Sequence record: NC_007023.1
From: Escherichia phage RB43
DNA length: 64,000 bases
Strand: one strand, 5' to 3'
The notes under the pieces are model-generated. The model was not told where the DNA came from. It saw only the letters and a program-made list of their open reading frames with translations, and searched no databases. A program made the translations under genes and the position numbers. Position 1 is the stretch's first letter. Every line of letters starts with the position of its first letter. Positions 940 through 52,828 of this stretch are shown here, piece after piece.

Positions 940-3150
940 CGCTTTATCTTCCAGAATATACCGGATTTGATAGCCATCACTGTTTCTCAGGATTCGAGCA
1001 ATTAACGGATTGCGTTTAGCGAAAATCTCATATTGTTCGTCAACGCGTTCAATCATTGCATGTTCCATTTCTTCATGTCGGGCCTGTGCCACACGAATAG
1101 ACGGGTTCTTTGCTTCTGTCGTTTCACCGTCTTCTGTAGTCTGCATCAACACTTTACCATCAAGCGTGTTCAGAATATTGTATCGACGCGCATCATAACG
1201 GTTTTTAACCATGCGATCAAGGCTAATACCCAACTTTTCATATAGCTCTTTAACGGAATCACGGTACTTTTTCGAAACAAAAGCCGGATACCAGTTAGGT
1301 TTCATTTCTTTTGCAGTCTTGCAGAACAATTCAGCAAGGAACGTATCAAGACAAATCATGCTGCTGTCTGGGATCTTATTCCATAACGAATTACGGAGTG
1401 TATACACCACACGAACACCAGAGATTTCCATCACAGTAGCCAGGTTATTCATGATGTTTGACATCGAGAAGTTATTCGACTCACTCAACGAACTGTAATC
1501 ATCAACACCATACAGACGCAATGCGTATGCAGATTCGAGGTTGACAAACTCCGCTTTCGTGAGGAACAAATCTTCTTTGTTCAAATCGCCATTGATCCCG
1601 ACCGTGTAACGGTATGCTGTCGGCGTTTTCGGACGCGGTTCGGAATCTTTATCGATTGTTTCGCGTGTTGCTCTCCAGCGACGGCGATCCTCAGTATACA
1701 CTTCCAGTTCTTCCGTCATTTCACTGGTTTTCAGATAAACGATTTCAGATTCATCATAGTAACCGTTTTTGATGAAGTTCTGTAAATTATCCTGATTTCT
1801 GTTCGGATCGTATTCAATAAAGTTCATACGGTAAGTTTTGTGAAGCATACAGTACCCGATAGCATACGCACGTACAGACTTCGCGTTGTTATCGTTCTGT
1901 AACAGATACAGGTTTCTTTGCTTCCACGGGTGCAGCATACGCGTAATATCCTGGCGGCGCATGGTTTCAGATTTATACGCGTCGTAACGACGACCAGAAC
2001 CTGTGCGCTCAAAACTGCAATCTTTACCGTCATACACGTTCGCCCAGTATCCCCAGATCTGCATACTGGTGACCAGGTCTTTACTATTGAAGTGCATCAC
2101 CAGTTCAGCAAGGGTATTTTTCCCTACTTTAAACTGCTTATCACGGGTAACGAAAGTCTGCAACAGCGTTGGTAAATTTTGATACCAAATAACCTTTTCA
2201 CGCGTCGTTTTCAGTTTAGCAAATTCTGCTGATAGTTCTGAATAATACTGGTCGTTGATTGCTCCGAGTCGATCCATGATAACTTTCTTGGTGATCTTAT
2301 CAAGGCTTAACTCTTCGCGTGACGGCATGAAATCCAGAGAACCCAGCGGAAAATCCAAAATGTACGCATAGCTACTGTTCTGGTAGCAATAAAACAGGGA
2401 TTCTCTGAACATATCCAGGTCAATAGGATAGCAAATGTTACCCATACGCGCATACAAACCGGAATAATGCTTTGACTTATAACTGATGATCCCGCGATTA
2501 TTTGCTTCTGTCGGTTGCCAGTTGATATCCAGTTGAACACCAATAAAGCGAGGACGAATAGTTGTAAACGCTTCGTACACACGAGCGGCTTCACGTTCCC
2601 ATTCTGGGATATCTTCGACGTTAACCGGAACTGTTACCTGAACGCCGTTAGGTTCATCAGTTTCTACAGCATACAGAGGGTCAATGTACGGTTCGCCGTC
2701 TTCATTGAGGTAAGCAGTATAACCGCGCTTCATGCCGTCCTGAATTGATTCTACGGTGAATGTTGAGGTGTAGCAGAACGGTGATTTGCTACCCAGCCCC
2801 AACGCCCCGATCAGGTCGTCGGTGTCGGTTTTGGTTGATTCGAAATAAACGGTGAATACTTCGTTCACCATGTAATCACTCAGGCCAGTACCGTAATCAC
2901 GAACGATGAAACGAGGATCGAGAACAGTCGGTAACTGAACGTCAAAGCGATCCATGTTACCCGCTACGATATGACCATCAATCGCGTTACAAGAAATCTC
3001 ACGAATGATTGCGCGGATCTTGTATTTGTAGATTGTGGATGAAAGGATTTTGAACGCTTTCTTACCTGCTCTCATTCCAAAAGCTCTACGGCTTCCAGAC
3101 TCGATACCTACACGATGAACTGTGCTTGCTTGGCTTTCGCGTAACTTCAT
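940..3150 (-). CDS. rIIA: rIIA-like protein (about 737 codons, reads in frame into rIIB)
   Basis: ORF track 1..3150; N-terminal ATPase-like motifs (NAIDGH, DYGTGLS, GLGSKSPF) resembling T4 rIIA. Confidence 0.7.
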
Positions 3151-4005: not shown

Positions 4006-5296
4006 TTATTTCAATTTCTTCGAAAGTTCTTTCAAATCATTGAGATATTCAATTTTCGGGGTTGTCTCTTCCCAGTATTTCAGTTGCTTGCGCAATTCAT
4101 TTGCTTCATCTTCCAGCTTTTGACGTTCGTCAGTAGTTAGATGATAGGATGTTCATCGCAACCAGTATTTCGGCGTGGTTTTCGCAACCCTTCCATGTTG
4201 ATACGAATTGAACCGCTTCACTACGACTCAAGCCCTTCAACGAGTCAGGAGATTCAATCATCTGGTCGATAAATTCAACCTTAGCCAGCGCCCTTGCAAG
4301 TGCTTCCTTCGCTTCCTGTATGCGTTTTTCGATGCGCTGTTGATAAACCGTCATACGGATATCAACGAAATCTTTCAACAACGTTTCAGGACGTTCATAT
4401 GAATGCAACTTACCATTGAAGATAACGTTGATGTTCGGGTTTGAGTTCTCAATCAATCCAAAATCTTTCAGGATCTTTTCATGGGTAAGCCCGTTGGCAT
4501 ACTCACGTTTAAGGGTTATCTCATAGCGAAAATCTTCTTTCGATAGATCCTTATAGCTTACGATACACCCTTTCTCTTCCAGCTTATCCAGAATCGCAAT
4601 ATATTTCACGCGATCATACTTGACCGGAATCTCAGTGATCACCAGTTTAGTTTTACCCTGGAGTTCGTACTTACCGTACATTGTCCCGTCTACAATGTCA
4701 CCTTTAAATTGTGGATATTTCAGGTCAAGCGTGAAATCTTTCCCGTTCAGGTAACTAACACATCCATTCAGAACCGAAACCGGATCATGTGGTGGAATGT
4801 TTGTCGCGTATCCTTTCGCGATCCCTCTGAACCCGTTAACCAACACCATAGGAATGATTGGCAGATAATAGGCTGGCGGTAGGTGTTCAGGATCTTCATG
4901 CGGGATTGTTAAATCTTCGTCCATGTAGATAGCCTTGAACAGCGGAGACAGCTTACAGTAAATGTAACGAGGTGCGCCAGGCTTCTTAACCAGACGGGAA
5001 CCAAAGAACCCATCACGATCGAAAAGCGGGATATTATTGCACCAGTGCGCCGCCATGAGAGACAACGCTTCTTCAACGGATGTTTCCCCGTGGTGATACC
5101 CGTATATTGCAACACCGCCAGCAATAGATGCTACTTTCTGGAAGCCTGAACCTCCTTTCGCTGCTGAATGCACGAAGAAACGGTGAACGGGTTTGAACCC
5201 GTCTACCAGGTGCGGGATAGCACGAGAATAAATTGTGTAAAGGGCAAACGTAAGCCCTTCAACCTGTACAACGTCTTTAATACTTCTTTCCATCAT
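4006..5296 (-). CDS. 52: DNA topoisomerase II medium (GyrA-like) subunit gp52, reading frame broken near 4133-4152
   Basis: N-term AIPHLVDGFKPVHRF GyrA signature; 388-aa ORF 4130..5296 ends prematurely and a coding-like +1 frame (DERQKLEDEANELRKQ...KKLK) continues to TAA at 4008..4006. Confidence 0.7.
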
Positions 5297-7185
5297 TTCA
5301 CCGAAAATTTATGTTTTCCGTCAACCCAGTCTTTACGCGGATCGGACTCTTCACCGAAACACAGTTCCAGAACGTCTTTGTAATCGTCGCCCAGTACGAT
5401 TGTATCGTATTTTAACTGGTCGCCCAACACGCGATCGTAATCTGATTTACGCAAAGAACCCAGACCTTTGATGTATCGTACCTCTTTCGCTTTGTCGCGG
5501 AAAGGTACAAAATCGTCCATAGAGTAGAACCATTTTTCATCTTTTCCGATTTTAGCAATGATAATCGGTGTACGGATATACCGGATCTTTTTCTTCTCGA
5601 ACAACTCAGGCCAACGACTAAAGAACGCAATCAGTAGGGTGAGAATATCGCCCCCGTCAACGTCCGCATCCACCATGATCCCGATATTGTCGTATGCCAT
5701 TTCGGAAGAGTCGCCTGGATGGAGATTCAGGATCGCCATTAACTCGAATAACTCTTTGTTTTTGAGAATGTCGGTAAAGCTCATTCCCCAGGTGTTCAAC
5801 GGTTTGCCACGTAGCGGAAATGCGCCTTGTGTCTCTTCGTTTCTGCACTCGATAAACTGCCCTACAGCGGAATCACCTTCGGTCAGAAACAAAGTGGTTT
5901 CGACTCCATCGGTATCAATCCCTGATGCGGGAACATGTTTTGCAATCTTCGCCTTTTTCGCTTTCTTTTTCGCTTTCGTAATTGCTGCGGCTTCTGCTGC
6001 TTGCTTGCGAATAAGAGCGGATTCAATGATCGGAGTGATTATTTCAGAAGTATCCATAATCTGCTTCGCGATCTTTTTGTAATTCAATCCGGCGTGATTG
6101 TTGAACTCTCCAGCAGTATTGGTCAGTTTTTCTTTCGTCTGACTGTCAAAAGCTGGTGCATTGAAGTTATGCAAAAACACGACCAAAGTCAAGCATTCTT
6201 TTACACGGGCTTTCGGGATCTCGATAGCGTGTTTCTTCTTGATCATCGGTTCCAGTTCGGCATAGATACCATCAATCATACAATCGACGTGTACGCCACC
6301 GTTTTTTGTGTCCAGACCGTTGACGAATGATTTTTGTTTGAATCCGTCTTCTGTGCTCGCCAGGATGAAACTAATTTTGTTGTTTGTCTGCGTGATTGTG
6401 CTGTCGCCATACATCGCGCCATACATCGCAAACTTATTCGGTAATGTTTCACCGTTGTATGTGAATTTAACCGAAGGGAACGCCACTGCAAGCGCCATAA
6501 GGCGATCTTTGATGACTTCCTTTGTTTCTTCGTCGATGCCATCAACACCGAAGATTGAGAAATCAGGGGTAAACTTAACAGTGGTTCCCTGTTCTTTCGT
6601 CGGGCTTGTACGGTAATCCATGTTCTGTGCGCCGTCAGTACAGTTGATCGTGACTTTGCGCTTACCGTTGGATGTTTCACCGATAAAGATTGAACTGTAA
6701 CAGTTCGTCAGGAAAGAACCTACACCGTTCATCCCCATTGTTACGCGGTTTTCATCATCGAAGTTTGAACCAGATTTTGCCATAGTCCAGGCTGCAACAG
6801 GTTTAGGAACAATTTTCCCTTCTGGTGTTCTCACGTCATCTTGTGGAATACCGCGCCCGTTATCTGAGATTGTCACCAGATTATGATCAATCTTCACTTC
6901 GATTCTGTTCGCGAATTTAAAATCTGTACGGATCGCTTCGTCGATTGAGTTGTCGAGAATTTCATTGATGATTTTCACCAGACCTTCGACATATTCCACT
7001 TTGCGGAATTTACCCATGATGAAGCGTTCGTGTGCTTCGCGGTTCACTGAACCCACATACATGTTAGGACGTTTGCGAATGTGATCGCGGTCACTCAGGC
7101 AGAAAGATTCATCAACCTTTACGCCTTTTGGCGTTTCCGGTACTTTCTGCGGTTCGTCTTCGTCCATTAAGAAATCTAAACTCAT
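5293..7185 (-). CDS. 39: DNA topoisomerase II large (GyrB-like) subunit, gp39 and gp60 equivalents in one ORF
   Basis: GHKL ATPase motifs (ILDNSIDEA, ISDNGRGIP) and Toprim motif (TEGDSA) in one 630-aa protein; ATG at 7185 after AAAGAGGTG. Confidence 0.85.
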   Translation of the reverse strand: MSLDFLMDEDEPQKVPETPKGVKVDESFCLSDRDHIRKRPNMYVGSVNREAHERFIMGKFRKVEYVEGLVKIINEILDNSIDEAIRTDFKFANRIEVKIDHNLVTISDNGRGIPQDDVRTPEGKIVPKPVAAWTMAKSGSNFDDENRVTMGMNGVGSFLTNCYSSIFIGETSNGKRKVTINCTDGAQNMDYRTSPTKEQGTTVKFTPDFSIFGVDGIDEETKEVIKDRLMALAVAFPSVKFTYNGETLPNKFAMYGAMYGDSTITQTNNKISFILASTEDGFKQKSFVNGLDTKNGGVHVDCMIDGIYAELEPMIKKKHAIEIPKARVKECLTLVVFLHNFNAPAFDSQTKEKLTNTAGEFNNHAGLNYKKIAKQIMDTSEIITPIIESALIRKQAAEAAAITKAKKKAKKAKIAKHVPASGIDTDGVETTLFLTEGDSAVGQFIECRNEETQGAFPLRGKPLNTWGMSFTDILKNKELFELMAILNLHPGDSSEMAYDNIGIMVDADVDGGDILTLLIAFFSRWPELFEKKKIRYIRTPIIIAKIGKDEKWFYSMDDFVPFRDKAKEVRYIKGLGSLRKSDYDRVLGDQLKYDTIVLGDDYKDVLELCFGEESDPRKDWVDGKHKFSVK

Positions 7186-51125: not shown

Positions 51126-51166
51126 TCAACAGGCTATCTTCGGATAGCCTTTTTTCTGGAGAAACT

Positions 51167-51733
51167 ATGCGCTATTTAAAATACGCAAGCTGGATCTTAC
51201 TGGTTCCGGTAGACATTATCACAGGTGTTCTTGCTATCCTGTTAGCCCCCTTTGTGGTTCCGTTCTATGATGAAAAAGTAGGACATCTGCCTAAAGGGTT
51301 CCGATGGATGGAAACCTATGATAACCCGATTGATGGTGACGGTGGACACATCGAACGCTGGAAAGATATTCGCAAATGGGGCGCTGTCGGTGTCTATGCT
51401 CAACGTGTGGCGTGGCTATGGCGTAACAAGGCGTATAACTTCGCGTATCATGTGTTGGGGCGTGAGTCTATATCACACACCTACTGGAAAGGAAACAAAC
51501 TGGTAGACAGCAGTTCAAGCGATCCTAAACATCATGGCTTCCTGGTGATGTGGAACGAATCTGCGTGGGGTGTATTCGGTTTCGTGCCGTGGCTACGTAT
51601 CCATAACATTCAATTCTGTCTGCGTGTCTATTGCGGGTGGAAACTGAAATCGGAAGTAAACAACCCAGACAACAAAGACCGTGTGATGCTGGCATTCCAC
51701 ATCAACCCGTTCCGGTTCTATAAAATCAAGTAA
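51167..51733 (+). CDS. membrane protein (188 aa)
   Basis: N-terminal TM helices. Confidence 0.5.
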   Translation: MRYLKYASWILLVPVDIITGVLAILLAPFVVPFYDEKVGHLPKGFRWMETYDNPIDGDGGHIERWKDIRKWGAVGVYAQRVAWLWRNKAYNFAYHVLGRESISHTYWKGNKLVDSSSSDPKHHGFLVMWNESAWGVFGFVPWLRIHNIQFCLRVYCGWKLKSEVNNPDNKDRVMLAFHINPFRFYKIK

Positions 51734-51742
51734 AGGTAATAT

Positions 51743-52105
51743 ATGAAAGCGTATCAAATTTTAGAAGGTTTACATACTGGTACTATCTATCTGGAAGAAG
51801 GAAACGATGTTCGGATCGTAGTATCAAAAACTCTCGAAGTGGATTCAGTGATCGGAAAATCTCGCGTTGTACCATTCGCAAAACGTGAAGTTGATATTGA
51901 GTTTCAACCGACTGTTAAAGTTGAAGGTGGACAGCACCTAAACGTGAATGTGCTACGTCGCGAAACCCTGGAAGATGCTGTGAAACATCCTGAGAAGTAC
52001 CCACAGTTAACGATCCGCGTTTCAGGTTATGCAGTTCGCTTTAATGCACTGACTCCAGAACAACAGCGCGACGTTATCGCCAGAACCTTTACGGAAAGCA
52101 TGTAA
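51743..52105 (+). CDS. grcA: autonomous glycyl radical cofactor (GrcA/YfiD-like)
   Basis: C-terminal 70 aa nearly identical to E. coli GrcA as I recall it, including glycyl-radical signature RVSGYAV. Confidence 0.8.
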
Positions 52106-52329
52106 TGTCTATTGAAGATATCAAGGGGTATAAACCCCATACTGATGAAAAAATTACGATCGTGAATCGTATCAAAGCAGCAGAAAATGAACTGGGTGCT
52201 ATCCTGGATGATCTTGATAAACGATATTCAGGTGATTACGCCTGTTCAGATCTGGAATCACACACAGAAAAAGAACTTGATGAAATGCTCGAACGTACAC
52301 ATCAAATTCAATGGCAAAAGACCGACTGA
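52105..52329 (+). CDS. hypothetical protein (74 aa)
   Basis: ORF track; ATGA coupling to grcA-like gene. Confidence 0.45.
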   Translation: MSIEDIKGYKPHTDEKITIVNRIKAAENELGAILDDLDKRYSGDYACSDLESHTEKELDEMLERTHQIQWQKTD

Positions 52330-52392
52330 AAGAAGCCTCTATGTGGGCGTGTCGTGCGGTGTTCCAGCCAGAAGAAAACTATTAAAATCAAG

Positions 52393-52419
52393 CCGTTGCC
52401 GAAAGGTGACGGCTTTTTT
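52393..52419 (+). terminator. rho-independent terminator
   Basis: GCCGTTGCCGAAAGGTGACGGC followed by TTTTTT. Confidence 0.55.
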
Positions 52420-52485: not shown

Positions 52486-52543
52486 ACAACTTAACTTTGA
52501 GGATGACATTATGAACAACTTAACTTTGAGGATGACATTATGA
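52486..52543 (+). repeat. perfect tandem duplication of 29 bp containing SD and ATG
   Basis: ACAACTTAACTTTGAGGATGACATTATGA at 52486-52514 and 52515-52543. Confidence 0.85.
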
Positions 52544-52828
52544 AAACTTACAACATGAAAGACCTGGTTGCTTCAAAACTCGTCGTGAAGCCCGTGCGTA
52601 TGTTCTGGCGGCTGGTAAAAATACCTCTGCTGTAATCGACCTGGGTACTGATAAAGAGGTTGGTGCTCGTTGGGCCGCTGTTGTGGTTATCGCTGTCCCT
52701 GTTACCCCTGCTAAAACTCTGGTTCTGGGTGCTCGCAATAGCGAAACTTTGAACACCAGCACTTGCAATAACAGAGGAGTTCATAGTGTCAAAGTGTTCA
52801 AACGTCGCAGCATTGGTGCGAGGGCTTA
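52511..52828 (+). CDS. internal-protein-like gene (MKTY N-terminus), frame broken
   Basis: ATG 52540 gives MKTYNMKDLVASK... but stops after 31 codons; 94-codon frame without start runs 52536-52828 and ends TAA overlapping next ATG. Confidence 0.3.

Follow-up and report, generated by a model that had tools for sequence, protein, structure and literature searches.

We have found that Escherichia phage RB43 carries a gene whose product most probably acts as a spare part for the pyruvate formate-lyase (PFL) of its host. The gene occupies positions 51743..52105 of the window, by which we mean the whole stretch of 64,000 nucleotides of record NC_007023.1 that was analysed, and we put at roughly 85% the probability that it encodes a Vs.6/Y06I-type spare part, a GrcA/YfiD-type autonomous glycyl radical cofactor acting on cleaved PflB. 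That the window holds a phage-encoded cofactor of the GrcA type had been proposed in an initial annotation made from the sequence alone, and the proposal stands, since homology to GrcA extends over residues 18-120 and the protein is 75% identical, over 100% of its length, to the product of T4 vs.6 (Y06I), which is equally long (120 aa). The RB43 protein has a mass of 13.6 kDa. Its reading frame is preceded by a Shine-Dalgarno sequence that ends 6 nt before the ATG, and in Citrobacter phage Miller a ribosome binding site is annotated at the equivalent position. The gene and its parts are laid out as follows, with the E. coli residue numbers GrcA Gly102 and PflB Gly734 taken from PMC12338860.

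51743..52105, plus strand: grcA-like coding sequence, ortholog of T4 vs.6/Y06I, from ATG to TAA in the list of open reading frames (120 aa plus stop)
51733..51737, plus strand: Shine-Dalgarno sequence AAGGT (AAGG/AGGT), read from the sequence, overlapping the stop codon of the upstream gene
51743..51922, plus strand: N-terminal half, residues 1-60, phage-type, fast-evolving and distantly GrcA-like
51923..52102, plus strand: glycyl radical domain at the C-terminus (residues 61-120), which would stand in for the cleaved C-terminus of PFL
52016..52036, plus strand: RVSGYAV glycyl radical motif, residues 92-98, from the sequence and the alignment
52025-52027, plus strand: codon of Gly95, the radical glycine, equivalent to GrcA Gly102 and PflB Gly734

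The likeness to the host protein is concentrated in the C-terminal domain. E. coli GrcA/YfiD is identical to the last 60 residues of the RB43 protein at 58 positions, with an identical RVSGYAV loop, and the RVSGYAV columns are invariant in an alignment of the RB43, T4, E. coli and T5 proteins. Near-identity had been claimed for the C-terminal ~70 aa; this is correct for about 60 residues and overstated for 70, over which some 62 match (~62/70, counted by eye on the alignments). The resemblance is nevertheless far larger than a short generic motif, to which the initial annotation had allowed that it might be limited. Residues 61-120 also align without gaps with residues 700-759 of PflB (PDB 1h16, 2pfl), 48 of the 60 being identical (80%, counted by eye), the Gly734 loop included. 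Unlike PflB, the RB43 protein stands alone, having neither the catalytic barrel nor the Cys418/Cys419 pair, and GrcA, not PflB, is its nearer relative by protein and DNA alike. Searches of structures and profiles gave the same picture: the best PDB match by phmmer is E. coli GrcA (6owr, E = 1.2e-41, residues 19-120 against 25-127) and the next is PflB (residues 690-759, E = 2.6e-26), while the Pfam Gly_radical model (PF01228) matches residues 60-101 with E = 2.8e-18 and 66.8 bits, the gathering score being 22.2 bits. It is in keeping with a GrcA-type protein that the RB43 product is small, carries its Gly_radical domain C-terminally, has the radical loop and is nearly identical to the PflB tail.

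The N-terminal half is another matter. As had been noted, it differs from that of GrcA: the first 60 residues are weakly similar, with a weak alignment to GrcA residues 25-67, so that the RB43 protein, which is 7 residues shorter and strongly diverged in this half, has an overall identity to E. coli GrcA of 64%. The RB43 gene differs from E. coli grcA also in being phage-borne and in lacking the host's regulatory context. The NCBIfam equivalog model for GrcA, TIGR04365, aligns with residues 18-120 (E = 3.4e-45) and scores 153.4 bits, which is below its curated cutoff of 170 bits. E. coli GrcA scores 233.9 bits against the same model; T4 Y06I, however, which is a validated spare part, scores 151.1 bits and falls short as well, and we therefore take the low score of the RB43 protein to reflect a phage-type N-terminus and not a loss of function. 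All 121 positions of the PHROGs phage profile phrog_1209 are covered by residues 1-120 of the protein (E = 2.1e-59), and the RB43, T4 and T5 proteins alike begin with MKAYQ. We also note that a second profile, phrog_21327, matches residues 27-120 with E = 2.7e-29; its 760 profile positions equal the full length of PFL, which suggests that some phages may encode a complete PFL-like enzyme.

The gene belongs to a family that is widespread in phages and that was already known. The T4 protein begins with the same MKAYQILEG and shares 57 of the 60 C-terminal residues with that of RB43, compared with 33 of the 60 residues (55%) in the N-terminal half. T5.056 of phage T5 and the GrcA-like proteins of other Demerecviridae have the same architecture, the MKAYQ start and a C-terminal domain identical to that of RB43 at 50 of 60 positions, but they come from a different phage family, carry insertions and deletions in the N-terminal half and have an overall identity of 55-59%. 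Homologs were found by tblastn in 1,586 of 50,697 phage records, including T4 (75%) and T5 (55%), and the majority of these records are of Escherichia, Salmonella, Klebsiella and Shigella phages. Closer to RB43, the gene is kept in 72 related genomes across a 2-kb region, which is 100% identical in two records of RB43, a Pseudotevenvirus, and 97-98% identical to that of the Citrobacter phages Miller, Xman, CfP1 and IME-CF2. The Citrobacter phages have the gene annotated as 'glycyl radical cofactor', 'grcA' or 'pyruvate formate lyase', whereas the RB43 records label it 'protein of unknown function' and could take the grcA/vs.6 annotation. T4 has only one such gene, vs.6, located between denV and regB, and its product matches the ~14-kDa T4 protein named Y06I in the literature. 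According to PMC8683613, which cites Wagner et al. 2001, Y06I of T4 and YfiD of E. coli are the only two experimentally validated spare parts, and the PFL-activating enzyme (PFL-AE) installs a glycyl radical on both, each of which binds PFL cleaved by O2 and restores its activity; the spare-part role of Y06I and YfiD is also described in PMC13450708. In addition, a 2006 comparison of five T4-like genomes that included RB43 reported a Gly_radical match for vs.6 in 6 of the 6 genomes compared (PMC1524935). Since both the activity of the T4 protein and this match had been published, the RB43 finding is a correct re-discovery of a known gene, whose family, T4 prototype and biochemical activity date in print from 2001, and the standing of a noteworthy discovery that the initial annotation had given it does not survive.

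The mechanism that we favour is one in which the protein would be made from a compact unit of early-region genes in an infected enterobacterial host, under anaerobic or microaerobic conditions. Once O2 has cut the backbone of host PflB at Gly734, which bears the glycyl radical, the phage protein would supply its C-terminal domain of 60 residues as a substitute for the PflB tail that was lost. Its Gly95 would receive a radical through PflA (PFL-AE), the activase of the host, and the phage protein would hand this radical to Cys419 of PflB. The payoff would be that fermentative production of acetyl-CoA, ATP and formate continues during infection, and formate would probably bring a further payoff as the reductant of NrdD, the class III ribonucleotide reductase that RB43 itself encodes. 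To judge from an identity to Y06I of 75% overall and of 95% in the C-terminal domain, the RB43 protein would, like its T4 ortholog, be activated by PFL-AE and restore PFL that has been cleaved. Because YfiD attaches to cleaved PFL through its N-terminal half, and this half of the RB43 protein is very unlike that of the host, binding or activation could nonetheless differ in RB43. We infer a physiological benefit of the RB43 gene to the phage; the literature searched contained no in vivo phenotype or benefit for any phage grcA.

The history of the gene can be read in part from its rates of change. Over the C-terminal 60 codons RB43 and E. coli grcA have 82.8% nucleotide identity, with a dS of ~1.4 and a dN of 0.022, and RB43 and T4 have 80.6%, with a dS of 2.25 and a dN of 0.030. 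The dN/dS of this domain is thus ~0.01-0.02 across saturated synonymous divergence, and purifying selection on it is extreme; strong constraint of this kind is expected of a part that has to fit both an enzyme and an activase of the host. The N-terminal half, by comparison, has 61.7% nucleotide identity between RB43 and T4, with a dS of 1.75 and a dN of 0.38, and evolves more than 10 times faster than the C-terminal domain. The codons of the gene had been described as phage-like, which is true of the whole gene, whose GC3 of 0.35 lies within the range of its neighbours (0.29-0.53), and of codons 1-60 (0.25), but not of codons 61-120, whose GC3 of 0.45 is like the 0.43 of E. coli grcA. This break inside the gene may come from constraint or may be an old host signature; recent transfer does not explain it, because no close bacterial DNA match was found. 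When the C-terminal half of the RB43 gene was aligned by blastn with the grcA loci of E. coli and of 80 other bacterial species, the best of the 80 reached 82.4%, below the 82.8% of E. coli, and recent capture from another enterobacterial host was rejected as a source of this half. Gene conversion from pflB or tdcE was rejected likewise, in that a distant blastn search hits a single place, grcA, in each E. coli genome. With 82.8% nucleotide identity, a high dS and none of the 80 other species closer, the proposal that the gene is host-derived and not recently acquired is supported.

We also note that T4 vs.6 has a different appearance. Its 3' half (5181..5360 of the NC_000866.4 extract) has 97-98% DNA identity to E. 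coli grcA (1504..1683 of the extract) with a dS of 0.10, and identity between the two genes leaps from ~50% to 97-100% exactly where the domain starts with EGGQHL. From the sequences, this 3' half of T4 vs.6 looks like the result of a recent gene conversion from host to phage. RB43 grcA is without a host-identical tract such as that in T4 vs.6, its 3' half having 83% DNA identity. The contrast between the two phages would illustrate both gene conversion between host and phage and the extreme purifying selection on a part that fits a host enzyme.

A direct role in the maintenance of a phage anaerobic ribonucleotide reductase had also been suggested, and this part of the initial annotation we set aside. 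RB43 does encode such an enzyme together with its activase: NrdD, a protein of 707 aa with the C-terminal motif RRTCGYLG, lies at 154742..156865 of HE981739.1 and NrdG, 57% identical to T4 NrdG, at 160991..161482, both far from grcA in the genome. (In HE981739.1 only NrdG of the two bears a functional product name.) The glycyl radical domain of NrdD resembles GrcA in having a C-terminal radical-bearing glycine that is cleaved by O2, and it is conceivable that the RB43 protein is a spare domain for NrdD, activated by phage NrdG. Cleavage by O2 is common to all glycyl radical enzymes, spare parts for enzymes other than PFL are speculated on in PMC8683613, and a role in nucleotide metabolism was guessed in the 2006 paper on T4-like genomes (PMC1524935). 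The two domains nevertheless depend on different activases and have no detectable sequence similarity; a BLASTP comparison of GrcA with RB43 NrdD gave a best E of 8.5, for an alignment away from the RRTCGYLG glycyl site. NrdD, moreover, has a Zn-binding region at its C-terminus and RB43 GrcA has none. The C-terminal domain of the RB43 protein is 97% identical to GrcA and 80% identical to PflB, and is therefore shaped for the PFL barrel, and demonstrated spare parts serve formate lyases only (PMC13450708). Because of these three points, the missing similarity to NrdD, the closeness to GrcA and PflB and the range of demonstrated spare parts, direct rescue of NrdD is unsupported, and we consider it very improbable. 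An indirect connection is easier to defend: most class III ribonucleotide reductases that have been characterized draw their reducing equivalents from formate, and the literature discusses a formate site in T4 NrdD (PMC4493059), from which we infer that a link from PFL through formate to NrdD is plausible.

Other readings keep PFL as the partner or dispense with a partner altogether. The protein might titrate host PFL-AE, or give its radical to intact, non-activated PFL, and so shift fermentation independently of oxygen damage. GrcA restores formate production to full-length PflB G734A in vivo (PMC12338860, Table 1), so that backbone cleavage is not required for it to work, and the N-terminal half, unlike the host's, is conserved among phages, as seen in the match of phrog_1209 to all 120 residues and in the MKAYQ start of T4, RB43 and T5. 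An effect of this kind would, however, be the same chemistry in a variant form and not another chemistry, no sequence feature points to inhibition, and the T4 ortholog is described in PMC8683613 as a true rescue part in vitro; we regard such a modulator or decoy as unlikely. There is almost nothing, in our judgement, to recommend the idea that the gene is a piece of host grcA that was captured and hitch-hikes without a role in infection. The gene does sit in a variable region of small accessory reading frames, at a genome location unlike that of T4 vs.6 and beside a vs.4 homolog that is frameshifted in RB43. Its own reading frame, on the other hand, is intact and has a Shine-Dalgarno sequence, it has been kept in the 72 related genomes and the 1,586 phage records, and the low dN/dS of the C-terminal domain is a signature of selection by which the hitch-hiking reading is effectively refuted.

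If the RB43 protein is a spare part for PFL, as we favour, it is possible, though we hold it doubtful, that it does more than passive repair by keeping PFL making the formate of NrdD and that, in a related process, phage copies are periodically brought back into line with host grcA. A supply of formate for the phage class III ribonucleotide reductase under fluctuating oxygen could then be the selective value of the gene, and the conserved phage-type N-terminal half could engage PFL or PFL-AE otherwise than host GrcA does. The periodic re-synchronisation, an idea prompted by the ~98% DNA identity of the T4 3' half to E. coli grcA, may proceed by recombination, with RB43 representing a lineage without a recent event.

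As judged from the annotation of the near-identical phage Miller, grcA of RB43 belongs to an extended run of early-type genes on the plus strand, with cd and gp31 on one side and the DNA ligase gene gp30 on the other. This differs from the denV-regB location of vs.6 in T4. Three genes form a compact unit here with grcA in the middle, where it is preceded by a DUF7338 gene, whose stop codon is 9 nt upstream of the grcA ATG, and followed by a homolog of T4 vs.4. The unit and its flanks are made up, besides grcA, of the following.

51131..51150, plus strand: terminator-like hairpin with T-run, preceding the three-gene unit (hairpin scan)
51167..51733, plus strand: DUF7338 gene, 188 aa, with a hydrophobic N-terminus (PF24027, 4.9e-65; phrog_2143)
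52105..52329, plus strand: vs.4 homolog, 74 aa (Pfam Acb2_Tad1_hairpin, 6e-8), its start overlapping the grcA stop (TAATG)
52390..52415, plus strand: terminator-like hairpin (stem of 11 bp) with T-run, following the three-gene unit (hairpin scan)

In phage Miller a terminator is annotated at the position equivalent to 51131..51150. A consensus scan gave no sigma-70-type promoter just upstream of the unit, and the regional count of such promoters was below the shuffled expectation. The downstream reading frame has 58% identity to T4 Vs.4 over 50 aa (E = 4e-15), and T4 Vs.4, which we take to be the anti-CBASS sponge protein Acb2, likewise matches the Pfam model Acb2_Tad1_hairpin. Because a vs.4 homolog lies downstream of grcA in RB43 and the two genes are linked in T4, the linkage between vs.6 and vs.4 has survived relocation. 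Synteny with the vs.8-vs.7-vs.6-vs.5 block of T4 was considered and rejected, the flanking reading frames in RB43 being without similarity to vs.8 and vs.5; apart from grcA itself, the vs.4 homolog is all that the two loci have in common.

Some smaller features of this region may be recorded. The DUF7338 gene has a GC3 of 0.53, the highest of the neighbouring genes. Compared with Citrobacter phage Miller, the vs.4 homolog of RB43 has a 1-nt deletion near 52311 (one T, caaTtggc) that shortens the product from 93 aa to 74 aa, and its conserved C-terminus, KDRLKEASMWACRAVFQPEENY, can be read in another frame in RB43; the stretch is 100% identical in two RB43 records, and the vs.4 homolog is probably a pseudogene in this phage. 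Further downstream, a tandem duplication of 29 nt at 52488..52545, in which cttaactttgaggatgacattatgaa occurs twice and which is not found in phage Miller, leaves the next reading frame, whose ATG is at 52540, with two copies of its ribosome-binding site and start codon.
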